A stretch of DNA of 64,000 nt from an uncultured Bacteroidia bacterium (GCA_902800045.1 CADCCZ010000006.1:66174-130173), one strand, 5' to 3'; counted from the stretch's first letter, positions 6,994-63,750 are shown. Notes: generated from the sequence alone by a model not told the origin. A program made the numbers and translations.

Positions 6994-7005
6994 TTCATAT
7001 CGGCA

Positions 7006-7075
7006 TTTACAACGATAAGAGCATTACAAATGCTCATACTCAACTCAGGCAGATTACAAATCCGCCTGAACAATA
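7006..7075. repeat. Left half only of the palindromic repeat
   Basis: gcattacaaatgctcatactcaactcaggcagattacaaatccgcctgaacaata matches 5619-5673 with one mismatch. The similarity ends abruptly at 7075. Confidence 0.85.
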
Positions 7076-7107
7076 GTCAATAACAATATTTGGGTTTTGC
7101 ATACAAT

Positions 7108-8013: not shown

Positions 8014-8015
8014 TG

Positions 8016-9824: not shown

Positions 9825-9854
9825 CTCTTTATATCTTTACGAATTAATACACTA

Positions 9855-9862
9855 CAAATATA
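9855..9862 (-). promoter_or_regulatory. -7 promoter box (TATATTTG on minus strand)
   Basis: Plus-strand caaatata lies 31 nt upstream of the 9824 ATG, suggesting the nuclease-WYL pair can be transcribed on its own. Confidence 0.35.
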
Positions 9863-9892
9863 CACACAATGTTGATATATACAATATAATTT

Positions 9893-10843
9893 TTACCTAT
9901 TTATAACCTCAATTGCCCTTTCTACATCCTTTTCCGTAATTCCTATAATTGGATCGATGCGGATGAAATGGTCTTGCAGTTCGGGTAACACTTCTTTCAA
10001 GTCATCGAAGATGACGAATCGGCGCGAATCGCTGTTGGCATCAAGCACTTCGTCGAAATACCACTTTATTTCGTTGCCTCGGCACAAACTTAGCATATCC
10101 ACTTGGGTCAAGTCGGTGTCGCGCAGTTTGTCGTCCAGCAGGTGCAAAGGCGTAATATCTACAATTCTACCAGGTAAATCGCGGTCGTACCACATCCTCT
10201 GCAAGACATTCAGCCCCATATAGCGCCACGACGAACTGACAACAATACGCGCACCAGTAACATCGATTATTTTCCGCAAATTCGACACAGCCTCGGGGTC
10301 GAACAACTGACCATATTTGTCATCGCTGGGCAGACCCTTGCTTTTCAATTCGCAATAATATTTCTCGGTGTTCAGAACGCCATCGAAATCGAGAAAAATA
10401 ATCGGACAATCCTTCTCATTATCTTGTGCTGCAATCTCTTGCTCTTTTTCAAAGCAGACATCAGCTGTCGTTCTGAATACTTTCTGTTCGTTGTGCTTGC
10501 CTGTTGTCTGCCAATCCAGTAGCAACGGGCGTTCCTTTTCGACAAGGTAATCCGAACACTCCAGCAAGGTGTCCTTGTCGGTGTCGAAAAAGATGTCTTC
10601 CGTAGCCTTTGGCAACCGTCTGAAAAGTTCGCGACTTCCAATGAAGAGTTCCTTGTTCTCCAGAAAATTATTCAAAGTTCCCATAATGGTGAACTTGTTT
10701 TCCTCAATGTGGTGTAATACGGCTTCCTTTATAAATTCATCAAGCACATCTTTAAGTCTGCTTTCGTCATAATTTGCGCCGCTAGCCTTCAAATATGCCT
10801 CCAGATGTGGCATTTCATAGTAAAGTTCAATCGTTCCTTTCAT
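9893..10843 (-). CDS. Two-domain protein: unknown N-terminal domain + HAD-superfamily phosphatase domain of the HAD_SAK type
   Basis: C-terminal half: IIFLDFDGVLNTEKYY (DxDGVL motif I), IVVSSSWR (motif II-like), RGNEIKWY, FVIFDDL (motif IV). Confidence 0.55.
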   Translation of the reverse strand: MKGTIELYYEMPHLEAYLKASGANYDESRLKDVLDEFIKEAVLHHIEENKFTIMGTLNNFLENKELFIGSRELFRRLPKATEDIFFDTDKDTLLECSDYLVEKERPLLLDWQTTGKHNEQKVFRTTADVCFEKEQEIAAQDNEKDCPIIFLDFDGVLNTEKYYCELKSKGLPSDDKYGQLFDPEAVSNLRKIIDVTGARIVVSSSWRYMGLNVLQRMWYDRDLPGRIVDITPLHLLDDKLRDTDLTQVDMLSLCRGNEIKWYFDEVLDANSDSRRFVIFDDLKEVLPELQDHFIRIDPIIGITEKDVERAIEVINR

Positions 10844-39304: not shown

Positions 39305-40441
39305 CTACGAATTTGAACCTTGATAAAAATCTAACAGACTGTCAACGTACGGCTTAATATCAAATTGACGAGCGAACTCCTGTGCAAAAGCCGACATCTG
39401 ATTATATTTCTGTTTGTCGTTCCAAATTTCGAGAATCCTATCCGCAAACTGCTCGGCATCCTGTTCATACACCATATAACCATTTTTTCCTTGTACAATC
39501 AAGTCACGATTGCCACGTCCATCGAGAGTGACAACAGGGAGGCCAGACGCCATGGCTTCGATAATAGTTAATCCTAAAGCTTCTGAAAGCGAAGAATGAA
39601 CATAGATATTATTTATGGAATACATTCTCTCTACATCTTCAACTAGACCTGGCATCTTTAAATATGGTAATAAACCATATCTTTCCGCCACCGACATAAT
39701 CTTATTGCCATTATTTCTCCAATCTCCTACCAAAGTAAGAATTGCATCATTTCCACGGCTTCTAAGGTTTTTCAACACATCAATCAAAAATATTTGATTT
39801 TTATTGTCTGACATGTGAGCCACCATTATCAAATTTAACGGGCCTGAACAATCAAGATTTCTTTCACAATAAAATTTATGATAGTCTATCGCATTGGGTA
39901 AAGTATATATATTTTTAACCAAAGTCTTAGGCAAAGCTCTTTTGTAAAACCTTTCAGTATCACCTGATATCGCAATAAACTTATTGTTACATCTCTTATA
40001 TTTTGCAACAATCCTACATTTCTCCCAAAACTTAGTCAACTTAGCTTTATTAAAAAAAGTTCCGACTGTAAAATTCCTAAATTCTGGCATATTATTATGA
40101 GCATGAGTAAAATACCTTACATTAGGAAATAAATGTTCCCTGCTCACCAATTCAGACTTATATGTATGCGAATGGATGACGTCCGGACAATATTCTTTAA
40201 CTATATTATCAAACTCAGCAACATCAATATTTGAATGACCAAATATGGACAGATTTACCTTTGAATTACAATACACAATATCCAACCCCTGCGACAACTC
40301 TACATATTCATTTTTCCTTTCAAGCGCCACAATCTTATTTTGCACTTCAGGATGATATTTCCTCAAAGCCTGAGATATTTCCAAAACAAGCCTTTCCGCA
40401 CCACCCTTACCTAAACTCTGAACAACTTGTAGTATTTTCAT
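39305..40441 (-). CDS. Glycosyltransferase family 4 (GT-B)
   Basis: MKILQVVQSLGKGGAERLV N-terminus; HSSLSEALGLTIIEAMASGLPVVTLDGRGN (E-x7-E). Confidence 0.75.
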   Translation of the reverse strand: MKILQVVQSLGKGGAERLVLEISQALRKYHPEVQNKIVALERKNEYVELSQGLDIVYCNSKVNLSIFGHSNIDVAEFDNIVKEYCPDVIHSHTYKSELVSREHLFPNVRYFTHAHNNMPEFRNFTVGTFFNKAKLTKFWEKCRIVAKYKRCNNKFIAISGDTERFYKRALPKTLVKNIYTLPNAIDYHKFYCERNLDCSGPLNLIMVAHMSDNKNQIFLIDVLKNLRSRGNDAILTLVGDWRNNGNKIMSVAERYGLLPYLKMPGLVEDVERMYSINNIYVHSSLSEALGLTIIEAMASGLPVVTLDGRGNRDLIVQGKNGYMVYEQDAEQFADRILEIWNDKQKYNQMSAFAQEFARQFDIKPYVDSLLDFYQGSNS

Positions 40442-41361
40442 AAATCAAAAGCGTTTCTATCGATTCCATTAAAAACCATTTTTGAACAATCAAGATTGGA
40501 ATTAATCTGATATGCATACACAGGCAAAGTTGGTTTCGCCTCATAATCACTACTCAACAAAGAATATAACATTGAACCAGAATAGCAATAATAGGAGATT
40601 CTATGTATTCCCCTTTTTTGACAAAATGATTCCAAATGCTGTATCTCCTGTTCTAGTTCTTTTTTTGTTGTAACTTCGGAAAACAAAACAACAAGTCCGT
40701 CAGAAAATGTCCAAATTATAGCCTTGTCATTGTACAAATGACAAGAATATTTGCCATAAGTTTTATAATCTAAATAATCAGAATCCACGTATACCCCTAT
40801 TTTATCATTTTCTGTAATTTCTTTATTCTTAATTTTTGAAATAAACGCATTGCTAGAAACCCTTCTTAATATGTTAAAATACAAATCGTTCAAATGCATC
40901 TTATTTAACAACTTCAGCAATGGCATAGTCTTTACTTTGAACGAAAAACTATAAAAGGTACCTATATGCCGCCAATCATCCAACTTTTCATATATCTTAC
41001 TGGCCTTTTTATTAGGGAATACAACTATAGCATCAATATTATTTCCAATTGCTTCTTTTTCTATTCCCATAATCATTTCTGTCGCCAATCCCTTATTCCT
41101 GTAATTCTCATCAACAACCAAATCACCACACTGTGCTACTTTATAATTGCAAGAAACACTATTAAACTTATATATAGTAGTACATCTTAATGCTATAGGA
41201 ATATCTCCGTCCATTGCAATTATACCAAGCAATGGCATTCCAGACCACTCTGTACTATATTTTTTTTTGAAAAAATTTAGAGGCAGATTCCTTTTTCTAC
41301 ACCTATTAAAACAATCTCGGACAAGATTGATATTTGTTGTATTTAATAATTCAAATTCCAT
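40438..41361 (-). CDS. GNAT-family acyltransferase-like protein
   Basis: VVDENYRNKGLATEMI (acetyl-CoA binding Q/RxxGxG/A-like). ATGA overlap with the downstream GT4. Confidence 0.45.
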   Translation of the reverse strand: MEFELLNTTNINLVRDCFNRCRKRNLPLNFFKKKYSTEWSGMPLLGIIAMDGDIPIALRCTTIYKFNSVSCNYKVAQCGDLVVDENYRNKGLATEMIMGIEKEAIGNNIDAIVVFPNKKASKIYEKLDDWRHIGTFYSFSFKVKTMPLLKLLNKMHLNDLYFNILRRVSSNAFISKIKNKEITENDKIGVYVDSDYLDYKTYGKYSCHLYNDKAIIWTFSDGLVVLFSEVTTKKELEQEIQHLESFCQKRGIHRISYYCYSGSMLYSLLSSDYEAKPTLPVYAYQINSNLDCSKMVFNGIDRNAFDL

Positions 41362-41474
41362 TCTAAAATCTATTATATTCTGTTGCAGATATCGATGCTA
41401 AGCCTTTCGGCTCCGCCTTTGTTCAATCTGGGAATTATATGAAGAATACGCATTACTCTTATTTATAAACGCAA

Positions 41475-42647
41475 TTACTCAAAAATATCATATAATGACA
41501 GCAACAAATCACCTAGATTTACGACATCAACATTTTCATGTATTTCGTATTTTCTTTCTACAGGAGCGACTACAAATGTTCTATCAGGTCTTATTATATC
41601 GACTGCATTCCAAAAGCCCTGAGCAATTTGCGGAGCAGTTGATGCCTTGCATTCTATAGCTACGACTCTGCCATTTTTCTGCACGATCAAGTCCATTTCT
41701 TCACCAGTGGCACTTCTAAAAAAGGAAAATTCTGCATTCAGCACCGATGAGCAGACATTCTCTACGACAAGTCCTTCCCATGATGCTCCGAACACAGGAT
41801 GACCAAGCAAATCGTTGAAAGTTCTGATTTGCAACAACTGATGAAGCAAACCGGTATCCCGAACATATATCTTGGGTGATTTTACTATTCTTTTCTTTGT
41901 ATTCGCAAAAAAAGGAGGCAACGAACGAATCAAATAAGTTTGTTCCAAAACATCTACATAACGTTTGACTGTTGGATGTGTAATCCCAAGCGACTCTCCG
42001 AGTTTAGAGCTATTCAGAAGCTGACCATGATTGTGTGCAATCATCAGCATAAGACGAAGCATTTGCCTCGAAGTAATTTGAAATCCAAACTGTGGGATAT
42101 CGCGTTCTATGTATGTACGAATGAAACTTTCGCGCCACAACGAACTATACTCATCGTTTTCCGACAGATAACTATCGGGGTATCCTCCTCGCAACCAAAA
42201 TCTATTAATGTCAAAGTCGCTACTACCATATAATTCTTCATAGGTAAAAGGAGTCATATCAATCAAGCCTATCCTACCCGCTAAAGTTTCTGATGTATTT
42301 TGCAGCAATTCGCGAGAAGCCGACCCAAGCAATATAAATCTTCCATTTCGCCTGTCCCTATCGATTTCACTTCTCAGCACCGAGAACAATTCTGGCACTT
42401 GTTGTATTTCATCCAAACAGACAATCTTGTCGGCATTATTCCTGAAAAATAAAGTCGGTTCCGACAACATTGCATAGTCATCCCGATTCTGCAGATCAAG
42501 ATATAGCATCTCTGGCAACTCTTCAGACATCATCCTTATCAATGTGCTTTTTCCACATTGTCTTGATCCCAATATTACCACCGCTGGAAATACATTAAGG
42601 TATTCTTTTACAACATCTTGAACTCTTCTTGATATTAATTTTTGCAT
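41475..42647 (-). CDS. Orphan ATPase-nuclease fusion (AAA_14 + DUF4143-type), paralog of 37877-39130
   Basis: Walker A LGSRQCGKSTLI, CLDEIQ, and C-terminal EEMDLIVQKNGRVVAIECK (D...ExK). The start was set at the ATG at 42647. A -7 box TATTTTTG (plus-strand caaaaata, 42672-42679) lies 25 nt upstream. Confidence 0.75.
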   Translation of the reverse strand: MQKLISRRVQDVVKEYLNVFPAVVILGSRQCGKSTLIRMMSEELPEMLYLDLQNRDDYAMLSEPTLFFRNNADKIVCLDEIQQVPELFSVLRSEIDRDRRNGRFILLGSASRELLQNTSETLAGRIGLIDMTPFTYEELYGSSDFDINRFWLRGGYPDSYLSENDEYSSLWRESFIRTYIERDIPQFGFQITSRQMLRLMLMIAHNHGQLLNSSKLGESLGITHPTVKRYVDVLEQTYLIRSLPPFFANTKKRIVKSPKIYVRDTGLLHQLLQIRTFNDLLGHPVFGASWEGLVVENVCSSVLNAEFSFFRSATGEEMDLIVQKNGRVVAIECKASTAPQIAQGFWNAVDIIRPDRTFVVAPVERKYEIHENVDVVNLGDLLLSLYDIFE

Positions 42648-42867
42648 TTTGTAAATCTGATTTTCAATTTGCAAAAATACAACTTAAATCATTATAACAC
42701 ACATATATTAAAAATTATTTTTCTCGCTTGGTGTTAATTTTTAATTGGGGGAAAATGACATAGCAAGATTTTTTAACTAAATACTCGTATAACATTCCAA
42801 ATTTAATCACCGTTAAAATAACGGCGGCTATTTTTAGAGAAGACCCAATGTATTAATATAATATACT

Positions 42868-43425
42868 TTATTCAACAAATCCACATCCATATTTTTTTAC
42901 TACTTCTATTTGTTCTTGCTTCTTTTCTTCTGAAATATTTTTCTTAATGGTATATCGTTCATCAAAACAATTATCTTTATTCATTTTCTGTCTAACTTTT
43001 TCGTAATATTCTTCAGTAGAACAAATAAATCTTGCCGGATTGCCTGCCACTACAGTATTGGAAGGAATATCCTTAGTAACGACACTTCCTGCACCGACAA
43101 TAGAACCTGCACCGATTGTAACTCCTGGCAAAATAATGCTATTTGCCCCAACAAACACATCATCGCCAATGGTTGTCACACCCAATTTGGCATACCCCAA
43201 TTCTCTTTTTGTACTTGCATCATGCGCCAAGATATGGACTCGAGGTGCAATGGTTACATTTTTACCTATCTCTATAAGCCAATAGTGCGAATAGTCAATA
43301 ATAACATCACCTTGAATTTTAGTGCCTTCACCTATTTTCACTCCCATCCGACGAAATTTTGTTACCTCATCAATTGGGAAAAAGAAACGATATATTTTCG
43401 ACAATAACAATCTGAACCTATTCAT
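42868..43425 (-). CDS. Left-handed beta-helix (hexapeptide repeat) O-acetyltransferase
   Basis: Hexapeptide repeats IGDDVFVGANSIILPGVTIGAGSIVGAGSVVTKDIPSNTVVAGNPAR. Confidence 0.8.
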   Translation of the reverse strand: MNRFRLLLSKIYRFFFPIDEVTKFRRMGVKIGEGTKIQGDVIIDYSHYWLIEIGKNVTIAPRVHILAHDASTKRELGYAKLGVTTIGDDVFVGANSIILPGVTIGAGSIVGAGSVVTKDIPSNTVVAGNPARFICSTEEYYEKVRQKMNKDNCFDERYTIKKNISEEKKQEQIEVVKKYGCGFVE

Positions 43426-44326
43426 CTGAAAGTAATTCTTTTAATTTCTGCTTCCTGCAAAAATACGAAAATAAAATATTCAACTTGTATTTTGTATTTT
43501 CTTGTAACGAGTTAACGATCAAGGATTTTAACAAATACTTTATCCCGACTAGATTCCTATTAATCAAATGATCACGTGATGCATTAAACAATACGGCAGA
43601 ACGCAACCATTTTTTTTGCTTACCAGAGACCTTATTGGCAGGGTGTCCTTTCGAAAACATAACTTTCAATGTTTTCAACTGTTTTTCACTTGCCTTTGAA
43701 TGCATTGCCACCGACCTCCCTTCGTGTTCCACTTCAACCACCGTTGCCTGATTGGGTACATAAACCAAAGGGTACTCATCCGTTATCCTAAACAACAATT
43801 CCATATCCTCGCCAATAGACAATAGCGGATTGAACTGATGCTTGCGAAGAATTTCTGCCGAGCAACATATTTGCGGTGTGGCAATTATATCCTGTATCAA
43901 CAAGTTAACATCCATAGGGAACGGATACGAATGTCCTTCTTTTATATTAACGCATCCTGTCTGTTCGTTGAAGTACTCAATACCAGTAAAATAGCAAGCA
44001 ATATTACTTTCTTTCGCTATAAAAGCCGACAATTTTGCCAACCTGTCTGATTTCATATAATTGTCGCTATCCATAAAGCAGACATAATAACCATTTGCAC
44101 GAGCAATACCATTATTTCGGGCGGCACTGCGCTCGGCATTATCCTGATATATATATCGAATCCTTGAATCTGAATATTGAGCGACAACATCCTTGGTGTT
44201 GTCGGTACTGCCATCGTCAACAATTATGAGTTCCCAATCGGTATACGTCTGCGCCAATACCGATTCTATCGCTTTTGGTAGAAAGACGGCACGGTTGTAG
44301 GTTGGTATGATGATGGAAAATTTCAT
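43418..44326 (-). CDS. Glycosyltransferase family 2
   Basis: MKFSIIIPTYNRAVFL...WELIIVDDGSTDNT, FMDSDN. Confidence 0.8.
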   Translation of the reverse strand: MKFSIIIPTYNRAVFLPKAIESVLAQTYTDWELIIVDDGSTDNTKDVVAQYSDSRIRYIYQDNAERSAARNNGIARANGYYVCFMDSDNYMKSDRLAKLSAFIAKESNIACYFTGIEYFNEQTGCVNIKEGHSYPFPMDVNLLIQDIIATPQICCSAEILRKHQFNPLLSIGEDMELLFRITDEYPLVYVPNQATVVEVEHEGRSVAMHSKASEKQLKTLKVMFSKGHPANKVSGKQKKWLRSAVLFNASRDHLINRNLVGIKYLLKSLIVNSLQENTKYKLNILFSYFCRKQKLKELLSDE

Positions 44327-44329
44327 TTT

Positions 44330-45970
44330 CTATTCTTTTATTTGCCAGTGACCACCCTTTGCTGATCCAATATAAGAAATAATATCGCTCATACTCACAA
44401 TATCTCTTTCTATAGTCTTTATACTCACACCTAACTTGTCGGCCAATTGAGCTCTACTTATATATGGATTTCCCTTTATATAGCCTAAAATAGCTGCATG
44501 TCGATTGTTTTGAGCGACATTTTGAGAGACATTTTGGGCGACATTTTGAGAGACATCACCCGCCAAAATATTTCTACCTACACTCCAATGTCCGCCCTTT
44601 GCCGAGCCTTCATAACGAATTAAATCACCCATTTCTGCAATATCTCTTTCAACAGTCTTCAAACTAACACCCAACTTCTTAGCAATTTGTGACCGACTTA
44701 TTTGAGGATTCTCTTTTATACATTCGATAATTGCGACATGCCTGTCGTTTTGAACGACATTCTGAGAGACATTTTGAGCGACATCTTCTAAACTTTTTTC
44801 TCCTCGATAAAATGTAATAGCAAAATTATTGTTCTGAGCAGAGAATTCTGGTACTTTCGCACCATTTTCAGCACATACTTCAGTCATTCGCCGAACTCCA
44901 GAACCCCAGCTCTCAATAAATGTTGTTCGATACAAGACTTGTGCTATCAGCAAATTATGTGGCGATGATGCATGAGGTTTCTTCAATTTTTCAATGGACA
45001 AATCGGGAGGGAGAGTTCCTGGGTTTATTATCTCAACCCTATCATCGTATATTGCTAGACTTACAGCAGCATGTATGTTGTTGTAATCTCGATGGCACAA
45101 TGCGTTAATCAACGCCTCGCGCAATGCCTCCTGAGGTATCTCCAGTGTTTCGACACGCCGTACACCAACGATTTTGCCGTGAAGATTCAGGTGCTTGAAA
45201 CAAAAATCCATGCCAGCATCCAGCAAATCGAAAAAATTGCCTGTCGCCTGCCGATTATCAATAAATTCATTTTTATCCAATCCTCTGAAGCGAGCCATTC
45301 GCAACAGAAGTTGAGGATAATATCGGCTTTCCTTTGCAAAAAGCATAACAGCGGCTTGCGAAAGTTTACCATTGTTGAGCAGATTGAATTTATTAAGCAA
45401 TGATATTACAGAATCACCCTCTGCTGACGCATTCAACCTACCACCAGCTACTCCCAAACGGACGGCATTTCTAATGCGCACTTCTTCCAAATCAGAAAAA
45501 TCGACTCCGTATGCATCTTGCACGTCCCAACCGAACAATTGCGGACGATTTGCTCGAATTCTTTCGTCATACATGTCGCGTGGCATGACCATAGTAGTGC
45601 TCTCTACCTTGTAATACGGACAACCGCGAAAAACAAATGGATGCTGCCCATTAACGAATGCATCGCAATTCAAAACAATCAACTTTTTACCAGAATTATC
45701 AGGCAAATCAATGTATTCTATTCTTATGTCTGCAACAGGCTCTATACCTTTTATGGCTTGGGCAAGTTCACGTTGCGTAGCATCGGAAACATCTTGACCA
45801 ACAATCTTTAACGATGGGGCGACACCAAAAACCAATTGTCCACCATCCGTATTCAGAAAAGCACATACAGTATGCATAGCATCCTTGAGTTCTCCTGTTG
45901 TTTTCTTCAACTCTAGCGTGTGACTCTCACCATTTTCAATCAGTTTTTCTATATCTTCGTATGTGCGCAT
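44330..45970 (-). CDS. AlbA_2/Schlafen-like + HATPase_c_4-type putative transcriptional regulator (often annotated RecG-like) with a tandemly duplicated C-terminal wHTH
   Basis: N-terminal ESHTLELKK...AFLNTDGGQLVFGV (AlbA_2) and central LREALINALCHRDY. There are two consecutive ~75-aa copies of QNV(A/S)QN...I...NP.ISR.Q.A.KLGVS.KT.ERDI....D.I.Y.GSAKGGHW. Confidence 0.7.
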   Translation of the reverse strand: MRTYEDIEKLIENGESHTLELKKTTGELKDAMHTVCAFLNTDGGQLVFGVAPSLKIVGQDVSDATQRELAQAIKGIEPVADIRIEYIDLPDNSGKKLIVLNCDAFVNGQHPFVFRGCPYYKVESTTMVMPRDMYDERIRANRPQLFGWDVQDAYGVDFSDLEEVRIRNAVRLGVAGGRLNASAEGDSVISLLNKFNLLNNGKLSQAAVMLFAKESRYYPQLLLRMARFRGLDKNEFIDNRQATGNFFDLLDAGMDFCFKHLNLHGKIVGVRRVETLEIPQEALREALINALCHRDYNNIHAAVSLAIYDDRVEIINPGTLPPDLSIEKLKKPHASSPHNLLIAQVLYRTTFIESWGSGVRRMTEVCAENGAKVPEFSAQNNNFAITFYRGEKSLEDVAQNVSQNVVQNDRHVAIIECIKENPQISRSQIAKKLGVSLKTVERDIAEMGDLIRYEGSAKGGHWSVGRNILAGDVSQNVAQNVSQNVAQNNRHAAILGYIKGNPYISRAQLADKLGVSIKTIERDIVSMSDIISYIGSAKGGHWQIKE

Positions 45971-46063
45971 TTATCCAAATAATTGTCTGCAACAAAAATA
46001 CTAAAATATTTCATCATACAACATTCACAGCACAATTGCAAATCAGGATGATGATGGAAAATT

Positions 46064-47059
46064 TCATTTTCTGTTATATCGTTGAGTTCTTGTTTCTACA
46101 ATACGAAGATATGATCGCTTCATCTTGTCGTTAAGGAAAGAGTTGGCTATCAAAACTTTAGTCGCGTCAGGGACAGCAGAGAACACATCCATTATCTTTG
46201 CTATTCTAACAGGTCTCAATCCTATCAACTCGCCAAATCGCTCAAAGTCGGAACGGCAAGGATGACCTGTTTTTTCATATACATCGCTCCTCGGCATTGT
46301 AAGCGACAAGCCGCCATGCAATCCGAAATCATCGCCATCAATATGAATGCTTGTATTCAGTAAATCGTAAGCCGGAGCAAGAGCATAACCCACATCGGTT
46401 CTTATTATCGAAAAATTCTTCAGATGGGCATCTCCATTTCCGTATATATAGTTGAAAACAACCAACTTGAAAAACTGTTCCATAGAGACCATCCATGCCG
46501 GCATATAGCGCTTTATTGCATTGGCTATATCCTCGTAACTGCCGTCGTACTTATAATTTACTCCGCCATCAGCACGTGTTCTGCCTAACAACGATGCGAA
46601 ATCCTCCATTTCGCATTTTTCGCCGCCAAGAGTGATATCAAAACGCTTGGTAATGTAAATTGCCTCACCTTTTGGAAAGAAACACAATCCGTTTTCGGCT
46701 GTAGGTATCCCATAAACCTGGCGGGCAATCTGCATTGTAAGATGCTCGTTTGCCGGTATTTGTTTACGCGTCTCGATAGTCTCGTCCCAAGGTGCAGGTT
46801 TCAAAATGTATTTTGACCGGTCACCTTCAGCTGACAAACGGATCCTACCATTTTCTGCAACTGCGGGAAATTTCTCCTGTACTCCCGAAATTGAGATTCT
46901 ACGCATAGCGCTCTGCAAATCGGGCGAATTGCGGAACGAATCGATCCCGAAGGTGAGTTCGTGCGATATGCGCAAGCCATCAAAGAGGTGACGAATAGCA
47001 ACAGGGCTATAGGTAGCAAATCCTTGAGCAAGTGTCGATGGACAAACATTTACATTCAT
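46064..47059 (-). CDS. HipA-C-terminal-domain Ser/Thr kinase toxin (HipT-like, lacks HipA N-terminal subdomain)
   Basis: ISGVQEKF, YILKP, ITKRFD, MEDFASLLG, YGNGDAHLKNFSII (catalytic loop), APAYDLLNT. Confidence 0.8.
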   Translation of the reverse strand: MNVNVCPSTLAQGFATYSPVAIRHLFDGLRISHELTFGIDSFRNSPDLQSAMRRISISGVQEKFPAVAENGRIRLSAEGDRSKYILKPAPWDETIETRKQIPANEHLTMQIARQVYGIPTAENGLCFFPKGEAIYITKRFDITLGGEKCEMEDFASLLGRTRADGGVNYKYDGSYEDIANAIKRYMPAWMVSMEQFFKLVVFNYIYGNGDAHLKNFSIIRTDVGYALAPAYDLLNTSIHIDGDDFGLHGGLSLTMPRSDVYEKTGHPCRSDFERFGELIGLRPVRIAKIMDVFSAVPDATKVLIANSFLNDKMKRSYLRIVETRTQRYNRK

Positions 47060-47379
47060 ATCTTGCTAACTGTTAGGGAACCGATAAAATCCAAACCACT
47101 AAAAGCACACAACAAGCCAAAATCATCGTCCTCATCGATTTTGTTGGCCCGACAGACTACGCTACGATTCATACCTTCGGGCAATAGATTTGCGAAAAAA
47201 GGGAACAACGTATCGGAATAATACTCAGACTCCGACAACGGAAGAGTTTTGGAAATTGCACCGAACTTCCCATCTAGAACATATTCTCTATCGTACGAAA
47301 ACCGATAGCCTTTGCCGACGACATCCTCTGTCAGCATTCCCGATTTTACTCCATGATTATATATATACAAGGCTCTCAT
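47056..47379 (-). CDS. HipA N-terminal-subdomain protein (HipS-like)
   Basis: 107 aa: YIYNHGVKSGML...YRFSYDREY...LPLSE..Y....LFPFFANLLPEG...D..GLLCAFSGLDFIGSL. ATGA overlap with the kinase gene. Confidence 0.75.
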   Translation of the reverse strand: MRALYIYNHGVKSGMLTEDVVGKGYRFSYDREYVLDGKFGAISKTLPLSESEYYSDTLFPFFANLLPEGMNRSVVCRANKIDEDDDFGLLCAFSGLDFIGSLTVSKI

Positions 47380-47384
47380 TTCTG

Positions 47385-47585
47385 CTATTCGGTATCACGT
47401 TCGACATATTTTATTTCCAGACCTAGCACTTCCAGCAATCGAGTAATTGTAGCAAGCGACGGATTCGACTTTCCTCGTTCGATATCTTTCACTGTAGCAA
47501 GCCCTACCTCCGCCATTTGGGCAAGATCTTCCTGCGATATTTTCAACGCCTTCCGCCGAGTTCTAATTGTTGCTTGCAAATCCAT
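47385..47585 (-). CDS. hipB: XRE-family HTH protein (HipB-like)
   Basis: IRTRRKALKISQEDLAQMAEVGLATVKDIERGKSNPSLATITRLLEVLGLE. The start was set at the ATG at 47585 because the track start is a TTG inside the promoter box. Confidence 0.7.
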   Translation of the reverse strand: MDLQATIRTRRKALKISQEDLAQMAEVGLATVKDIERGKSNPSLATITRLLEVLGLEIKYVERDTE

Positions 47586-47620
47586 AAAGTATGCTTTATT
47601 ATACTTTAGGTGCAAAGATA
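47586..47620 (-). promoter_or_regulatory. -7 box (TATCTTTG, plus-strand caaagata 47613-47620) and inverted repeat AAAGTAT-8 nt-ATACTTT (47586-47607); candidate HipB operator
   Basis: Both elements were read directly. The inverted repeat lies between the box and the ATG. Confidence 0.4.
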
Positions 47621-47660
47621 TAATATTCTATTAATATGAAGTAATAAAAAGTTTATTTTT

Positions 47661-47720
47661 TTAGACTTTTACAAGATAAGCAGGACAAATATAGGTTGAT
47701 ATGATGACGGAAAAGGTCAT
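47661..47720 (-). pseudogene. 19-codon remnant of a GT2 gene start (MTFSVIISTY...)
   Basis: The ATG overlaps the stop of the upstream GT2 (ATGA). 23/27 nt are identical to the start region of the intact GT2 at 44300-44326. The ORF diverges and stops after 19 codons. Confidence 0.5.
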
Positions 47721-57802: not shown

Positions 57803-57935
57803 TGACAATGGGCAATGGATAATTGATAATTGATAATGGATAATTGATAATGGATAATTGACAATGGATAATGGATAATTGATAATGGATAATGGACAAT
57901 GGACAATTGATAATTGATAATGGACAATGGATAAT
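57803..57935. repeat. 19-unit heptamer array (KGAYAAT)
   Basis: tgacaat gggcaat ggataat tgataat ... ggacaat ggataat = 133 bp = 19 x 7. The last nucleotide overlaps the abiEii stop codon. Confidence 0.95.
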
Positions 57936-58921
57936 TATTTGTGGTGAGATGTTATTATACCTATAATCCTTATCATAGCTTGAAAAATATCATCTGCAGA
58001 AGGTATTTCCTTATATGACAATTCGGGCAGTTCTCGCAGATATGTTGACTGCAGTCGTTCCCAGACTCCTCGAAAATCTTTAAGTAAAGGTGATTCTGCA
58101 ATATCTCGTTTTTGCCATCCGACAGGTCTCTGAAATGTAACCATGTCATGGTTAAGCAAATTTTCGAAATCTTTATTAAAATCAATGCTTTGCATATATT
58201 TCATGCACTTCTCATCATTTGTCAGATAATATAAATCATAGAAATGACGTATATGAGCATTCAAATCAACAATATAATCGTCACCCATTGAACACCTAAC
58301 TAGCGAAACTAACTTCTCTGTCATAGTTCTTCGCCTATCAAGCACAGTCATGTTGAACGATTGCATTTCATAATCCGCAATTATATCCTGTCGATTTTTC
58401 GCATTCAGAAAATCTGTTACAAAACTATTTATTTGCCGCGTTTCACAAGGATAGGGATTTGCAAATGAATTTATTTCCAAAAGGATCTCTCCATGTTTGA
58501 ATGCATTTGAGGCATTAGGTATATCTGAAATTGTAGGATAAGCAAAAAAAGCTTTATAATAATGAGACCCTTTACTTGTTAAACCGACTTTGGGAATTTC
58601 CTCCAATTCCCAAGACATGATATGAGCAGTCTTTTTTATGATGTTCTTTAATTGATTGCCTGTCATTTGCTCCGAATTTGCAATTGCAATATCAATATCT
58701 TCCGAGAATCTGGAGCCTATGCCATAGGCTTTTGTCAAACTTGTTCCTCCTTTAAAAACAGCATGACAATCCTTATCAGCAGCAGCAAGCAGCTGAAGAC
58801 TTCTACATATCCAATAGTCCTTCTCAACAAATTCGCGCTTTATGCGAAAATGCTGAGAAGTCATTTCTACAGCCTGCGAGAAAAGCTCTTTATTTTTATG
58901 CAAATTCATACAATCCTCCAT
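57935..58921 (-). CDS. abiEii: Nucleotidyltransferase AbiEii/AbiGii-family toxin
   Basis: FKGGTSLTKAYGIGSRFSEDIDIAI (GG[ST]...RxSxDxD NTase motif). An alternative ATG at 58909 gives an ATGA overlap with abiEi. Confidence 0.8.
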   Translation of the reverse strand: MEDCMNLHKNKELFSQAVEMTSQHFRIKREFVEKDYWICRSLQLLAAADKDCHAVFKGGTSLTKAYGIGSRFSEDIDIAIANSEQMTGNQLKNIIKKTAHIMSWELEEIPKVGLTSKGSHYYKAFFAYPTISDIPNASNAFKHGEILLEINSFANPYPCETRQINSFVTDFLNAKNRQDIIADYEMQSFNMTVLDRRRTMTEKLVSLVRCSMGDDYIVDLNAHIRHFYDLYYLTNDEKCMKYMQSIDFNKDFENLLNHDMVTFQRPVGWQKRDIAESPLLKDFRGVWERLQSTYLRELPELSYKEIPSADDIFQAMIRIIGIITSHHK

Positions 58922-59625
58922 TCTTTAGCATTAGGCAAGGCATTTTCGGAAATACCCAATTTATACACAGTTGCTGCATTTAGCGACTTTTTCAATGACA
59001 CAGCATCGTCGCCAATGCACTCCAACAGCGCACCCAGCACGGCTCGCACCGAACTTGTATATGACAAAGCAAGACGAGCAATATCTTTTCGCTCTTTTAT
59101 ATTCAGCGCGGCCAATATATTCTTTATAACCGCAATTGCAGCATCAGGTGTCGTTGCCGGAATATGACGAATAAATCTTATCGCATCCAACAATTGTAAC
59201 AAATGCACGTTATTCCTTGTAATTACATTATGTTGTAACACAAAATTTATTTTGTTTTCGCCTCGCATTATAGCACGTCGATACGTATTAGTGCCAATAT
59301 GATATGCAGAAGATATTTGTGTAGTAAGCCCCATTTGTGCAAAAGCGCGAGTTCCTGTAATGTATCCGATTATTGATTTCCCCTTATACAAAAATTCGCG
59401 TAACAACCAATCACTTGATGGAGGCATAATTCCAAATACAGATTGCTTCGGCTTATCGTATTTACCCTTTGACAATTTCCTTATCTCACCATCGCGAACC
59501 ATTTTATTGAGTATCCTACTCACAACTGAAGGACTTTTCACAACATCATAGAAATCGGATGATGTGAAAACATATCCAGCCCTAAACCTATTTATCTTAT
59601 TTCTAACTAAATCAATATTTTGCAT
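58906..59625 (-). CDS. abiEi: AbiEi-family antitoxin/transcriptional regulator (N-terminal wHTH)
   Basis: FTSSDFYD....PSVVSRILNKMVRDGEIRKLSKGKY (wHTH). Positioned immediately upstream of and overlapping the AbiEii gene. Confidence 0.65.
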   Translation of the reverse strand: MQNIDLVRNKINRFRAGYVFTSSDFYDVVKSPSVVSRILNKMVRDGEIRKLSKGKYDKPKQSVFGIMPPSSDWLLREFLYKGKSIIGYITGTRAFAQMGLTTQISSAYHIGTNTYRRAIMRGENKINFVLQHNVITRNNVHLLQLLDAIRFIRHIPATTPDAAIAVIKNILAALNIKERKDIARLALSYTSSVRAVLGALLECIGDDAVSLKKSLNAATVYKLGISENALPNAKEWRIV

Positions 59626-59656
59626 ATCATAATTCAGAATACCAAAAAACTAAAAA

Positions 59657-59697
59657 AAGTCAAGTTTTTTACGTAAATAAATTGACTTGCAAAAATA
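59657..59697 (-). promoter_or_regulatory. -7 box (TATTTTTG; plus-strand caaaaata 59690-59697) followed by inverted repeat AAGTCAA-18 nt-TTGACTT (59657-59688); candidate AbiEi operator
   Basis: Read directly. The inverted repeat lies between the box and the abiEi ATG (59625). Confidence 0.35.
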
Positions 59698-59732
59698 AGA
59701 AATATTTTTTATTCCGGCAAATACGAACAAAT

Positions 59733-60232
59733 GGATAATTGATAATTGATAATGGATAATTGATAATTGATAATGGATAATTGATAATGGATAATGGATA
59801 ATGGATAATGGATAATGGATAATGGACAATGGATAATGGACAATGGATAATGGACAATGGACAATGGACAATGGACAATGGACAATGGATAATGGATAAT
59901 GGACAATGGATAATGGATAATTGACAATGGATAATGGATAATGGACAATGGACAATGGATAATGGATAATGGACAATGGATAATGGATAATGGACAATGG
60001 ATAATGGATAATTGATAATGGATAATTGATAATGGATAATGGATAATGGACAATGGATAATGGACAATGGATAATGGATAATGGACAATGGATAATGGAT
60101 AATTGACAATGGATAATGGATAATGGACAATGGACAATGGATAATGGATAATGGATAATGGATAATGGATAATTGATAATAATGGATAATTGATAATGGA
60201 TAATTGATAATGGATAATGGACAATGGATAAT
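59733..60232. repeat. 71-unit heptamer array (KGAYAAT) with one 3-nt AAT insertion
   Basis: Counted unit by unit: 41 GGATAAT, 18 GGACAAT, 10 TGATAAT, 2 TGACAAT, plus aat at 60181-60183, for 500 bp in total. Confidence 0.97.
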
Positions 60233-60240
60233 TATTTTGA

Positions 60241-60299
60241 ACATCGACGCAAAGCATTGCGTCGCTACTGGGGTGCCGATATTTATTGTATAAATCATT
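60241..60299. repeat. Left copy of a 59-bp direct repeat flanking the hipBA module
   Basis: acatcgacgcaaagcattgcgtcgctacTggggtgccgatatttattgtataaatcatt. 58/59 identical to 62281-62339. Contains the hairpin CGACGCAAagcaTTGCGTCG+CTAC. Confidence 0.9.
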
Positions 60300-60322
60300 A
60301 CGCTTGCGTTCGACGCGCCATT

Positions 60323-61834
60323 CTATTTAATCAAGAATTCATCGACATACCTTTGCGTCATTTCTGCAGACATGTGTTTCCATCCAGCATCCATAATCTT
60401 GCGCGCCAATGAACTATTTGCACCAAACACATACCGCTTGCATTCGCCATCCACTTTTGCACACAACTGAATATCATGCTTACGCGTCATCCTCCAGTGC
60501 ACATCACTAATCGCACGACCATCAGATGTCATATAATCGGGGACAGGCGTCGGCATATAATGCGTCATACCTCCAATATACCTCTCAGGCAACAAACCTG
60601 CCAGATACTCCTCTATCTTGTCCGCCCAGTAATCATCTACGCCTTGAGCTTTGAGATAAGACCAACATTCGGACAGTACACGACAAACCTTATCAATCTT
60701 ACCCTGAGCCCTTCCTATACTATTATCCGCTGCAAAACGGAGCAAGTCGCTTTCTGTTATATCCGACAATTTACCACCAACTGACAGGCAATGATTATTC
60801 TCATAACCAGATGTTTCCGGATTGGATGTAAAAGTCATGTCATAGGCTGGAGCTATATGCCACTCTCCATTCTCTACCATCTGGAATGAGAAGTTCTTCT
60901 GATGGTCGTCAACATTTCCGCCAAACACATTAAACACCATGCGCATAAACAACTCGTCTTGCTCGCCCTGCGGTATCTGAAGCATACGCGACACACGCAT
61001 CAAATCATCGTAACTATCCGCACTAGTACTCATCGCAGCCAAAGTCTGCGTATGGATTCTTTTCCCTCTCTGCCTGTCGAACCGCTCAGTCAAGAAATGC
61101 TTCTTTCCGTCAATCTCAACCAACCGAGACGGCATCATCCTTATACCTATAGCTTTTGCCATCTCGTAGTATGCCTGTTCGACCAATGTATATGGGAACC
61201 GATCAGTCTCAGCGAACTTTAATATATAATAAGTGTAATCTGCACCAAAATCAATCTGACCGGAACGTATTTCTTGCGTCTCGTTGTGAATCGCAATGAT
61301 GGCTTTCGGATGCTTTCCTCCAGCAGATGTTCCTATAGAATATAGACTTTGCAGTGTCAACGATTCTTCAGGCAAAACCATAACGTCCATCCGCTCTTCG
61401 AAAATACGTTGCGCCAACGAATACAAACTAGACAATGCCAACTCTCCTGGAATAGCAGACAACCCTACTGCCGGACGAAACTCCAAAGCCCCCATTCCCC
61501 TACTACCTATATAGGCCAATTTATCAACCGGTGTAATATCCTTTGAACGAATGTTATTCTCCTTTGCCCAGCATTCAAACACCAAACTTCCCCATTTATC
61601 CGGCAACGAATCGGCAATAAACGGCGGCAACCCCTGATAAACAGGTTCACTGCTTCCCAATATGGGACGAGCAGCAGCAACACTATGAATCGATGCGCAC
61701 AATGGCGCAATGTCAATTCCTGCACTTATGAATGCTGGATTGTACTCAAACACAGCCCTTGAAAGTTTCTTGTCCCAATATATGCGACCAACCTCCCGAT
61801 TCCACAACAATATAGACAGCACATTATTTTGCAT
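60323..61834 (-). CDS. hipA: HipA-family Ser/Thr kinase toxin (full length, with about 60-aa C-terminal extension)
   Basis: N-terminal subdomain (VGRIYWD...AVFEYNP, LPPFIADSLPDKWG), SAGGKHPKA, LTERFDR, and GGNVDDHQKNFSF (catalytic loop). The start was set at the ATG at 61834 because the track start is a GTG. Confidence 0.85.
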   Translation of the reverse strand: MQNNVLSILLWNREVGRIYWDKKLSRAVFEYNPAFISAGIDIAPLCASIHSVAAARPILGSSEPVYQGLPPFIADSLPDKWGSLVFECWAKENNIRSKDITPVDKLAYIGSRGMGALEFRPAVGLSAIPGELALSSLYSLAQRIFEERMDVMVLPEESLTLQSLYSIGTSAGGKHPKAIIAIHNETQEIRSGQIDFGADYTYYILKFAETDRFPYTLVEQAYYEMAKAIGIRMMPSRLVEIDGKKHFLTERFDRQRGKRIHTQTLAAMSTSADSYDDLMRVSRMLQIPQGEQDELFMRMVFNVFGGNVDDHQKNFSFQMVENGEWHIAPAYDMTFTSNPETSGYENNHCLSVGGKLSDITESDLLRFAADNSIGRAQGKIDKVCRVLSECWSYLKAQGVDDYWADKIEEYLAGLLPERYIGGMTHYMPTPVPDYMTSDGRAISDVHWRMTRKHDIQLCAKVDGECKRYVFGANSSLARKIMDAGWKHMSAEMTQRYVDEFLIK

Positions 61835-62144
61835 GGCGTACACGTTTCGGTTTCTTAGCGTTAAGCTTAGACATCATATAGGGCGAAAGCGGTATTGGAG
61901 GGAACAATTCATTTATCGACTCCAACCGCCCCACAATCCGCAACAGTGACAACAAATTGCCAAGCGTAATATTCTTTGCCTTGCCTGTCTCAAAGTTACG
62001 GATTGTTATCAGGCTGACGCCAACCTTTTCCGCCACTTCATGCTGTGTCAAATTTGCATTCAGACGATAGTCTCTAAATTGTTCACCTAACGACTGCACT
62101 ATCTCCGCATTCGACATTCCCAATATGTTATCTGCGTCTATCAT
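61824..62144 (-). CDS. hipB: XRE-family HTH protein (HipB-like antitoxin)
   Basis: LTQHEVAEKVGVSLITIRNFETGKAKNITLGNLLSLLRIVG. Overlaps hipA by 11 nt. Confidence 0.65.
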   Translation of the reverse strand: MIDADNILGMSNAEIVQSLGEQFRDYRLNANLTQHEVAEKVGVSLITIRNFETGKAKNITLGNLLSLLRIVGRLESINELFPPIPLSPYMMSKLNAKKPKRVRHAK

Positions 62145-62169
62145 TATTGTCTAAATAAAAAAAACGCCA

Positions 62170-62177
62170 CAAAGGTA
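62170..62177 (-). promoter_or_regulatory. -7 promoter box (TACCTTTG on minus strand)
   Basis: Plus-strand caaaggta lies 25 nt upstream of the 62144 ATG. Confidence 0.4.
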
Positions 62178-62280
62178 AAAAAAATTTCCAATAAATACAA
62201 ATATTACATCTAAAGGACAACAAATTTTCTGTTATATAAATTTTTAGATGTAATTTGGAGGCGTTTATATGCATGTGTAA

Positions 62281-62339
62281 ACATCGACGCAAAGCATTGC
62301 GTCGCTACAGGGGTGCCGATATTTATTGTATAAATCATT
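62281..62339. repeat. Right copy of the 59-bp direct repeat flanking the hipBA module
   Basis: Offset is exactly 2040 bp from the left copy, with one mismatch (A for T at repeat position 29). Confidence 0.9.
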
Positions 62340-62699
62340 TAATTATTACGTTCTATTTGTCCGAAACGCAACCATTTTTTTAGGGAACTATATACAAGTT
62401 GACTAAATTTTGTGCTATTAAACTGTCATTGCTTGTTTCACTGCGCGAGCTAAAGGTTCCGCAAGTTAGAACAATAACGCGATACGGAACGGGGAGCGTA
62501 ATATTGTTCAACTGTGCGGAATCTCCTATAGAAACGTTTTCAATTGGAGATTACTCACTCCGTTTCGTGAAGGAGTTCCGCATAAACGAACTCACAAGCA
62601 ACGTTCCTTATGCTGTTCGTTCTGTTTTACGGAATGACTCAGAGGGCATAGGACAAAAGCACATTGCGTCAACACGTATATAGCTACTTTTTTTTATTT

Positions 62700-62822
62700 G
62701 TCGTTGCTCGTTTATTAGTCGTTGCTCGCAACGGCTCTACGGGGTTTGGATATTGTCAGTCGTTGCTCGCAACGGCTCTACGGGGTTTGGATATTGTCAG
62801 TCGTTGCTCGCAACGACTCTAC
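62700..62822. repeat. Tandem 41-bp repeat (2 full units + partial units), each carrying the GTCGTTGCtcGCAACGrC hairpin + TCTAC
   Basis: gtcgttgctcgcaacggctctacggggtttggatattgtca at 62718-62758 and 62759-62799. The partial unit at 62800-62822 is identical to 22610-22632. Confidence 0.9.
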
Positions 62823-63750
62823 AACATTCCAATGACCGCCCTTGTCGGGGCCAACACGAACAATAAATCCTTTTTCTCGTAATGTATTTAAATGAACACG
62901 TATAGTATCCCTATGCTTCCCTGTCATATCAGACAACTTATCATAGGTAATCTTTGGATTATCCTTTAACAACGAAACTATCAAAACATCTAAATCATCC
63001 AATTTTTCAGGCGGATTTTCAGGCGGATTTTCAGGCGGATTTTCAGGCGGATTTTCAGGCGGATTTTCAGGCGGATTTTCTATGATTGTTCTCTTAACAT
63101 CCAGCCTCCTGAACACCACCAAAGCACAGTCCATCTTTTCATCACGGAAACTTACGAGCTTGGAATCTTCTTCATTCCATTGCTGCATCTTGTCAAATCC
63201 AAAACCAGCATTCTCGCACAACTTTGCGCAACGGAACAATTTGGCAATAACAGGATTGCGAGGAATTGAAACATCAGTACGCAGCAGTTCGTCAATTGGA
63301 CGAGGGAAACCGCCTGGATTTTCAAACTCAATCCGATCTGTAAACACCCTTATCCGCGACTTCATCGGACTGAAATAATCAGCATGCATAAGCATATTTA
63401 CCAAGGCCTCACGGAGAGCATCCAACTTAGGCGACTCTTCAATGCCAACACCCATCTGGTTTATTCCCACAAAAACATTATCCGCATACAATCTAAGTCT
63501 CTGTATTATAGCCAGATAATATTCCCAAATATTTTCCATTTCCGAAATTCGGAATGTATATCGGTTCGTAGCATTGGCATACGATGTTCCTGGAATCTCA
63601 AAATAATCAATTCTAAAATCTGCAAAATGGTGTCCTATTGACAATTCGTTACCAAACATCAGTAAGCCTCCGTATGTAAGATTGCCATTCTTGGCAATCT
63701 GCAATTTCTCGCAAAATTCAGTATCGTCCAGATTATTATGGACATTTAAC
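62778..63750 (-). pseudogene. 5'-truncated paralog of the AlbA_2/HATPase_c_4 regulator (AlbA_2 domain missing)
   Basis: There is no ATG; the frame is open from the stop at about 63750. NNLDDTEFCEKLQIAKNGNLTYGGLLMFG aligns with residues about 195-225 of the 546-aa paralog. LREALVNMLMHADY is retained. A (PPEN)x6 linker is encoded by a 12-bp tandem repeat (63008-63079). The 3' end runs into the 41-bp repeat. Confidence 0.6.

Follow-up and report, generated by a model that had tools for sequence, protein, structure and literature searches.

In a 64,000-nucleotide (nt) stretch of DNA from an uncultured Bacteroidia bacterium, a member of the rumen Bacteroidales (GCA_902800045.1, CADCCZ010000006.1:66174-130173; hereafter the window), a glycan operon carries three copies of the beginning of a family-2 glycosyltransferase (GT2) gene, which are the 5′ ends of one live gene and two dead stubs. 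These copies mark joints where accessory DNA, comprising a hipBST-like toxin-antitoxin trio and a regulator-like AlbA_2 gene, entered a 4-nt ATGA overlap between two GT2 genes. The best reading, which we consider probable, is that host homologous recombination acted through short homology arms taken from gene starts. The copies would then probably be arms that the cassettes carry with them, rather than target-site duplications (TSDs) of the transposase type.

Three copies of a GT2 gene start

The 25-mer ATGATGATGGAAAATTTCATTTTCT matches the window perfectly at two places that lie 1741 bp apart (Table 1). Not one of 100 dinucleotide shuffles held any match, and a search of the whole 3.2-Mb genome with as many as three mismatches allowed returned these two copies and nothing else. 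The duplication described in an earlier sequence-only reading of this DNA is therefore confirmed, and it is unique in the genome. The minus strand encodes every gene of the region, and on it copy 1 is, as had been proposed, the start of a 302-amino-acid (aa) GT2 gene (GT2-302; MKFSIIIPTYN), and copy 2 includes the end of hipT, whose final ...AGA AAA TGA shares its last bases with the duplicated ATG, again as first described. The further claim that the repeat exactly brackets the AlbA_2 gene holds for the bracketing and fails for the exactness, since a 77-nt leader is enclosed along with the gene.

Copy 2 continues past the 25-mer for 21 further bases of a degenerate GT2 start (CCTGATTTGCAATTGTGCTGT, versus ACCAACCTACAACCGTGCCGT in the live gene), and these bases, nt 21-41 of stub 2 (46027-46047), form part of the AlbA_2 cassette. 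Aligned with nt 21-41 of GT2-302, the extension has 12 matches in 21, eight of its nine mismatches are transitions, and the purine/pyrimidine class agrees at 20 of the 21 positions, a score equalled by only 2.3e-6 of genome positions (P=2.3e-6, genome-wide).

Copy 3, in which a GT2 start can be tracked for approximately 48-57 nt, had been described as a diverged version of this same start. It is indeed a 19-codon stub whose ATG lies over the stop codon of the upstream GT2 gene; its descent from this particular start is less secure. Copy 3 differs from the GT2-302 start at 7 of 33 positions, and an unrelated GT2 start elsewhere in the genome is equally far away. A genome search with the 33-nt start and up to nine mismatches finds four sequences, namely the live start, the two stubs and that unrelated start, with 7 mismatches each for the stubs and the unrelated start. 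Judged by these distances, copy 3 is a GT2-start stub that is not demonstrably derived from the start of GT2-302. When further GT2-start stubs were sought across the genome, a strict peptide motif returned the known stubs only, and a relaxed one gave too much noise to be of use. The idea that recombination targets a universally conserved 5′ sequence of GT2 genes was rejected, as the GT2 start of the window (≤3 mismatches) is found in only 2 of 39 genomes of the genus and only one other GT2 start in the same genome lies within 9 mismatches in 33.

An assembly artefact is excluded because independent public assemblies show the same structure: loci L015 and L016 are 100% identical to the window, and L017, at 97.9% identity, retains both 25-mers unchanged. 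The two copies are not identical in the sister loci L032-L034, where they differ at three positions (GGAAATGAAATTCTCCATCATCAT versus AGAAATGAAATTTTCCATTATCAT) and also by one A in an A-run. Exact identity over 25 nt is a feature of the window's lineage.

Related loci occur in three states

Related glycan loci hold the junction in three states. In the first (state 0), two GT2 genes are joined directly by ATGA. Locus L028 is collinear through FdtA ... DegT, a 486-aa gene, a rhamnosyltransferase gene, GT2-340, GT2-302 and an acetyltransferase gene, with its GT2 genes overlapping by ATGA, and L037/L038 represent a second locus type (GT2-345, ATGA, GT2-293, methyltransferase) with no cargo. Orthologues of the upstream GT2 gene of the window (GT2-338; 59-65% identity) stand directly upstream of a GT2 gene in both L028 and L037. 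In state 1 (L029-L031, G008 (L008/L026), L035/L036 and L027), a stub is followed by hipBST, the hipT stop is ATGA-coupled to the live GT2 gene, and there is no AlbA_2. State 2 (the window, L015-L017, L032 and L033/L034) has hipBST, stub 2, AlbA_2 and the live GT2 gene, and this arrangement is seen in three different locus backgrounds. Exact-protein look-ups with four window proteins returned the same arrangement only; the other states came from lower-identity homologues.

The alignment of L028 with the window locates the outer joints. The left flank is 84% identical (up to 47672) and the right flank 92.6% identical (from 44326), and L028 positions 7020-7067 align twice, once with stub 3 (47672-47719) and once with the live start (44279-44326), stub 3 being aligned with nt 1-48 of the L028 GT2 gene. 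Among the state 1 loci, L027 is 95.7% identical to the window across the upstream GT2 gene and hipBST, L035 is 93.0% identical across hipBST, and L035 presents the same AlbA_2-empty site in full context. The region thus has the marks of a junction between modules: loci with and without the block have collinear flanks, a partial copy of a flanking gene stands at the joint, and identity changes abruptly.

These relatives support the proposed serial insertion of the hipBST trio and the regulator at a GT2-GT2 junction, and the sequences support an order in which hipBST would have been inserted first and AlbA_2 later, at the newly made hipT-GT2 joint. Insertion and precise repeat-mediated loss in the relatives cannot formally be told apart.

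An explanation that needs no insertion is that the stubs reflect independent decay of full-length GT2 genes, or that the repeat is an artefact of assembly. The local part of stub 3 in L032 comes from a different GT2 start, which implies at least one replacement rather than pure insertion and to that extent agrees with decay. Yet no remnant of a GT2 body follows any stub, no relative was found with a full-length GT2 gene at the position of 47720, and L028 and L037 have direct GT2-GT2 junctions. As for an artefact, both copies are present in three independent assemblies, one of them 2% diverged, and in L027, a 31-mer-based contig, a 25-mer is shorter than the assembler's 31-nt word and too short to create a false, chimeric join. 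This explanation is largely refuted, and we give it almost no credence.

The stubs are composite and the flanking genes are mosaic

Stub 3 consists of two parts that differ in conservation. Its 3′ part (from about nt 34-49), which belongs to the hipBST cassette and reads ...TGTCCTGCTTATCTTGTAAAAGTCTAA AAAAATAAAC..., is unchanged over four upstream contexts, and its 5′ part depends on the locus. Stubs of equal 60-nt length in L029, L032 and L035 have different 5′ parts and the same 3′ part. The local part is ATGCGTTTCTCCATCATCGTACCTACCTACAAT (MRFSIIVPTYN) in L032, where it comes after an unrelated GT2-320 ending in TAA, and a heavily decayed GTGACC... in L035, where it comes after yet another GT2 gene. 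Constant cassette sequence starts at approximately nt 34 in L032, nt 40 in L035 and nt 49 in L029, and the homology between L035 and the window begins at 47681.

The live gene at the other end is also a patchwork. GT2-302 of the window and GT2-299 of L035 agree at 50 of their first 50 nt and at 70-86% over the remainder, and the comparison with the L028 gene gives 81% over nt 1-100 and then 92-95% (50-nt windows). The stretch that GT2-293, GT2-299, GT2-300 and GT2-302 have in common is the first 150-250 nt only. Within the cargo, the 3′ half of hipT is 97.5% identical to L027 and 94.9% to L033, and AlbA_2 is 95-100% identical by half to L033, L032 and L017, with 97.8-99% in its N-terminal part.

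Two side observations concern this mosaicism. The hipS gene is 87.5% identical between strains (L027 and L033 versus the window) at a place where the upstream GT2 gene is 100% and hipB 97.5% identical, a pattern that points to a possible allele exchange or to fast evolution of an antitoxin-like subunit within the module. L033 joins an upstream half like that of the window (GT2 100%) to a downstream half of the L029 type (GT2-293 and methyltransferase), with hipBST-AlbA_2 at the switch point; the cargo may act as a long homology region for the swapping of locus halves.

The AlbA_2 unit likewise seems to bring gene-start sequence of its own. The degenerate, cassette-side part of stub 2 is old: loci as close as L027 and L035 lack AlbA_2, so that 8 transitions among these 21 nt cannot have built up locally, and this part arrived with the cassette. 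The 77-nt leader matches L032-L034 at 98 of 99 aligned nt (99%) and L017 at 102 of 102, the junction stretches compared show no visible difference across backgrounds, and it has no counterpart in AlbA_2-free loci. An exact-pattern scan of metagenome contigs with the AlbA_2 leader gave no match; when the hipBST cassette's left edge was used instead, L035 and L036 were retrieved. The AlbA_2 gene itself is 97.8-99% identical in L017 and L032-L034 and is lacking from L027, L029, L035 and G008. A decayed GT2-like start, MKYHVAISNYK (20/33, P=6e-4), is present in a different species (G027, L004), where its ATG is overlapped by the stop codon of AlbA_2, and in G011 (L005) an AlbA_2 homologue lies 11 nt upstream of a GT2 gene, all of which argues for a long-standing coupling of AlbA_2 to a GT2 start. 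The idea of AlbA_2 as an element with conserved ends was rejected, as the homologues of four other species (83-88% identity) have nothing but the open reading frame (ORF) in common.

The G027 locus bears on a proposal for how the primary stub-cargo-start units were made, namely by one-sided (homology-facilitated illegitimate) recombination or by replication template switching, with one end in long homology (the hipBST or GT2 body) and the other joined through a short match such as the microhomology AGAAA(A)TGAAAT. In G027, AlbA_2 has the 3′ end CAGAAATGAAAT, which almost equals the hipT-GT2 joint, CAGAAAATGAAAT, and the hipT gene of the window is shorter than distant homologues, which end in RFNRQSD and a stop, as would fit a join inside the last codons. 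However, the common motif is better explained by long ATGA coupling of AlbA_2 to a GT2 start, with the L004 stub continuing in GT2-like fashion (P=6e-4), and the proposal does not account for all stubs being glycosyltransferase 5′ fragments of ≤81 nt. We give it a very slim chance.

No mobility functions accompany the cassettes

The cassettes contain hipB, hipS, hipT and AlbA_2 only, with neither mobility genes nor terminal repeats of their own. Among the 40 window proteins scanned, none carries a Pfam domain typical of a recombinase, integrase or transposase (no search was made for an enzyme acting in trans from another part of the genome), and no inverted repeats were found at the cassette ends. 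The features of a transposon or insertion sequence are absent, as there is no transposase in the window, there are no terminal inverted repeats, and the repeats of the two events differ in length (25-46 nt versus approximately 48-57 nt). Those of an integrase-borne element are absent as well, as there is no integrase in the window and hipBST has a different left breakpoint in each of L029, L032 and L035.

A site-specific integrase or transposase encoded elsewhere could in principle target the GT2 start and make a TSD each time. Such a dedicated enzyme would fit the presence of two cargo units at one gene start, an AlbA_2 boundary (after ...ATCATCAT) that is nucleotide-identical in two junction haplotypes, and the exactness of the 25-nt repeat in the window. 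It fits poorly with repeats of unequal length (25 nt exact, or 46 with the degenerate part, versus ~48-57 nt), with the non-identical copies of L032-L034, and with a cassette-side stub part that is old GT2 sequence rather than duplicated target. The context-dependent hipBST left breakpoints, the want of terminal inverted repeats and of a recombinase among the scanned window proteins, and AlbA_2 homologues of other species that have the ORF alone and no element ends in common also speak against it. We judge this explanation very unlikely.

Probable recombination through arms carried by the cassettes

The travelling arms, variable breakpoints, non-identical sister copies, mosaic identities and lack of an enzyme together favor arms borne by the cassettes. 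The three states, the arms, the variable breakpoints and the mosaic identities are seen directly in the sequences; the machinery of recombination, the direction in which each event ran and the way in which a first stub-cargo-start unit came about are inferred. A cassette can be written as [dead GT2 nt x-57]-[promoter + cargo]-[live GT2 nt 1-50 or more], where the upstream arm is an old, decayed GT2 5′ fragment and the downstream arm the 5′ end of a live GT2 gene fused to the last cargo stop. It would enter a related GT2 gene by a double crossover between the DNA of related strains, with the left crossover in nt 1-48 of the target and the right crossover deeper in the gene. In the product, the stub's 5′ part would derive from the target's own start, and the new start from the live arm of the cassette. 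Because the dead arm spans nt 1-57 and the live arm reaches further, such a double crossover would mimic a TSD. A crossover between the two gene-start copies would delete the cassette precisely. The outcome would be tolerated, as the upstream gene keeps its ATGA stop and the downstream gene keeps its start, now coupled to the last cargo gene. The statement in the sequence-only reading that each insertion left a copy of the gene start is thus accurate as description; the copies themselves resemble travelling homology arms more than duplications newly made by an insertion enzyme.

Several observations weigh against recombination through cassette-borne arms. First, both 25-mers of the window's lineage equal the pre-insertion site (L027, L035) at each of the 25 nt, 5 of which precede the ATG, and such exact identity is expected from a true TSD or from integration by a single (Campbell) crossover. 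Second, if the known AlbA_2-positive loci L032-L034 were the donors, a linear double crossover of the simple kind could produce this result only with crossovers in ≤11 nt. Third, both hipT-end haplotypes (AACAGAAAATGAAATTTTCC and AACCGGAAATGAAATTCTCC) exist with and without AlbA_2, a pattern that calls either for conversion or for repeated events, whether precise losses or insertions at one and the same nucleotide. Fourth, 20-25 nt is near the minimum for RecA-type exchange (~23-27 bp in Escherichia coli). Fifth, the rarity of the start in the genus means that the arms are usable within one GT2 lineage only. Finally, this reading does not account for how a first stub-cargo-start unit came about. 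For the observed pattern, we rank precise loss, crossovers in ≤11 nt, circular single-crossover integration and a site-specific enzyme acting in trans below general recombination.

The first and third of these points are also what would be expected of Campbell-type hopping, in which cargo loops out between gene-start copies and the circle re-enters a related GT2 start by a single crossover in a 20-25-nt block. This route would recreate the exact duplication and the start codon without a dedicated enzyme, and the circle or tandem junction would read GAATAG-AAAATGAAATTTTCCATCATCAT-CCTGATTT. It agrees with the exact duplication and its match to the empty site in L027 and L035, with junction haplotypes that occur both with and without AlbA_2, with the near-identity of the 77-nt leader (98/99 aligned nt, 99%) in other backgrounds, and with the finding of precise empty sites. 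The sister copies that differ by 3 nt and one A would, however, require extra mutations, and linear double crossovers explain the variable breakpoints of stub 3 and the co-travelling 50-nt live arm equally well. We therefore regard hopping of this kind as unlikely, and retain host recombination through short gene-start arms as the probable account.

A broader proposal is that stub-cargo-start units are recombinase-free, self-homing cassettes of Bacteroidales glycan operons, which would carry two overlapping copies of a glycosyltransferase gene start, move by circle or linear transfer into any related gene start, and rebuild the start codon and the ATGA coupling each time. We consider this generalization decidedly unlikely. 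If it were true, selfish or defence cargo (toxin-antitoxin genes, regulators, ATPases) would spread through the most-exchanged loci with no harm to them.

Genes of the region and further cargo

The features of the region are collected in Table 1. A hexapeptide acetyltransferase gene follows GT2-302. The first cargo has the gene order of HipBST systems, with a helix-turn-helix (HTH) protein, HipS (the N-terminal subdomain of HipA) and HipT (the HipA_C kinase) identified through PF01381, PF13657 and PF07804, and the hipB-like gene is annotated as 66 aa in public assemblies. The best solved relatives of hipT are the Legionella HipT 8ezr (E=3e-29) and then HipT of E. coli O127. Its P-loop region reads ISISGVQEK, in which we take the S-I-S motif to be HipT-like. 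None of the distant hipT homologues (63-67% identity, on genome contigs) adjoins GT2 genes; coupling of hipT to a GT2 gene is restricted to this cassette lineage. Upstream of hipB and within the AlbA_2 leader stand matches to TAnnTTTG, the Bacteroidetes -7 promoter consensus, and these boxes (47613-47620 and 45993-46000) may act as promoters. An Rfam scan of the window gave no RNA family.

Table 1. Coordinates of gene-start copies, cargo genes and neighbouring features, in window positions
Feature	Position	Strand	Remarks
Upstream GT2 gene (GT2-338), 338 aa	47717-48733	-	PF00535 E=5e-19; TGA overlaps stub 3 ATG
Stub 3, dead GT2 start, 19 codons, MTFSVIISTYICPAYLVKV then stop	47661-47720	-	ATG overlaps GT2-338 TGA
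TATCTTTG, match to Bacteroidetes -7 motif upstream of hipB	47613-47620	-	Motif match only
hipB-like HTH_3 antitoxin/repressor gene, 66 aa from ATG	47385-47585	-	PF01381 E=9e-15
hipS-like gene, 107 aa, HipA N-terminal subdomain	47056-47379	-	PF13657 Couple_hipA E=1e-19
hipT-like kinase toxin gene, 331 aa	46064-47059	-	PF07804 HipA_C E=4e-42; TGA overlaps stub 2 ATG
25-mer copy 2	46048-46072	-	Last 3 hipT codons and first 20 nt of a GT2 start
Stub 2, dead GT2 start, 17 codons, MKFSIIILICNCAVNVV then stop	46014-46067	-	ATG overlaps hipT stop
77-nt leader of AlbA_2 cassette with TATTTTTG (45993-46000), match to -7 motif	45971-46047	-	
AlbA_2 / HATPase_c_4 / 2 x winged HTH (wHTH) regulator-like gene, 546 aa, second cargo	44330-45970	-	PF04326, PF13749
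25-mer copy 1	44307-44331	-	AG of AlbA_2 stop, AAA and first 20 nt of live GT2
Live GT2 gene (GT2-302), 302 aa, mosaic	43418-44326	-	PF00535 E=1e-36
GT4 gene-start stub, 26 codons, MRILHIIPRLNKGGAERLSIDICNRI then stop	41373-41453	-	Upstream of 307-aa GNAT-like gene (40438-41361)

The AlbA_2 gene terminates in TAG, 3 nt ahead of the ATG of GT2-302. The C-terminal wHTH module of its protein (44345-44787) is a tandem duplicate (203 nt, 72% identity), and among near-identical strains the protein has 546, 550 or 554 aa, apparently by way of QNV(S/A) repeat linkers.

A scar of the same form lies further along the operon. Behind the GT4 gene-start stub, the stop of the GNAT-like gene overlaps (ATGA) the live GT4-378 start at 40438-40441 (GT4 gene, 39305-40441). 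The stub is common to L028 (71/78 nt), and its counterpart in L029 is the live start of GT4-383. Since this GT4 stub stands beside an ordinary glycan gene, the pattern extends beyond selfish cargo and beyond GT2 genes.

Other variable genes occur nearby. An AAA_14/DUF4143 ATPase gene (41475-42674; PADLOC candidate PDC-S01, E=2e-93) has no copy in L029 and L026, in which only ~215 nt separate the flanking sequences (42798-42835 and 41383-41450), and L028 has an ATPase_2/DUF234 gene in its place. In every locus the acetyltransferase gene is followed by a hairpin-like element of ~30 nt, AAAAATARCCGCCGTTATTTTARCGGTGRTTA, of which L028 has two copies. The same glycan locus contains, within 57935-63704, further cargo: a HipA of full length (506 aa, 60323-61843), an AlbA_2 paralogue truncated to HATPase_c_4 and wHTH (62778-63704), and an AbiEii / DUF6088 pair (57935-59625). 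Outside the glycan locus, at 5860-10843, are defence-like genes for a KAP/ATPase_2-like NTPase, a WYL-WCX regulator, an REase-ARP/PD-(D/E)XK nuclease and an HAD_SAK_2 protein.

Comparison with known systems

We regard this region as an unusually clean case of a fairly ordinary recombination scar, and it establishes no new principle. Its value is as a base-by-base record, with all intermediates, of non-glycan cargo entering a surface-sugar operon whose genes are tightly coupled and which stays intact. Portable homology arms that mimic a TSD can be made of no more than a few tens of bases from the start of a gene, which is relevant to the annotation of ‘TSDs’, to the reading of short ORFs in such loci, and to the question of why defence and addiction genes accumulate in glycan loci for phage receptors. 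The same locus also holds candidate defence ATPases beside its HipBST and regulator cargo.

Integrative elements, such as the islands in tRNA genes and e14 at icd in E. coli, supply the interrupted end of their target, and the displaced partial copy forms a direct repeat. The outcome here is alike, as the target gene is kept intact with a partial copy on the other side. Those elements restore the 3′ end, bring their own integrase and use a fixed core, whereas here the 5′ end is restored, no integrase was found in the window, and the breakpoints vary.

The mosaic O-antigen and capsule clusters of Yersinia pseudotuberculosis, and the side-branch modules of Salmonella, have modules that were replaced or inserted by recombination, with gene remnants at the joints, and ‘mature’ O-antigen modules have the tight stop/start spacing of translational coupling (PMC5399914). 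The region described here shares with these clusters its recombined modules, its remnants of displaced genes at the joints and its tight stop/start spacing. It differs in that the remnants are 46-81-nt glycosyltransferase 5′ stubs that would double as homology arms, that the cargo is not for glycan synthesis (toxin-antitoxin and regulator), and that two events fell on one start codon with all intermediates known.

In the minimal mobile elements of Neisseria, cargo that lacks mobility genes passes between strains when homologous recombination takes place in the conserved sequences on either side (summarised in PMC3787668). The likeness lies in variable cargo, the lack of mobility genes, conserved flanks, and gain, loss or swapping between related strains. 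The flanks in Neisseria are whole conserved genes, and exchange follows natural transformation; here each arm consists of some tens of bases from a single gene start that occurs twice, and the cassette would bring its own target homology.

Lastly, the cargo has the same gene order as the HipBST systems of E. coli O127 (7ab3) and Legionella (8ezr), with proteins here of 66, 107 and 331 aa. Unlike those two, this predicted HipBST-type system lies inside a glycan operon and takes its stop codon from an ATGA overlap with a glycosyltransferase gene.

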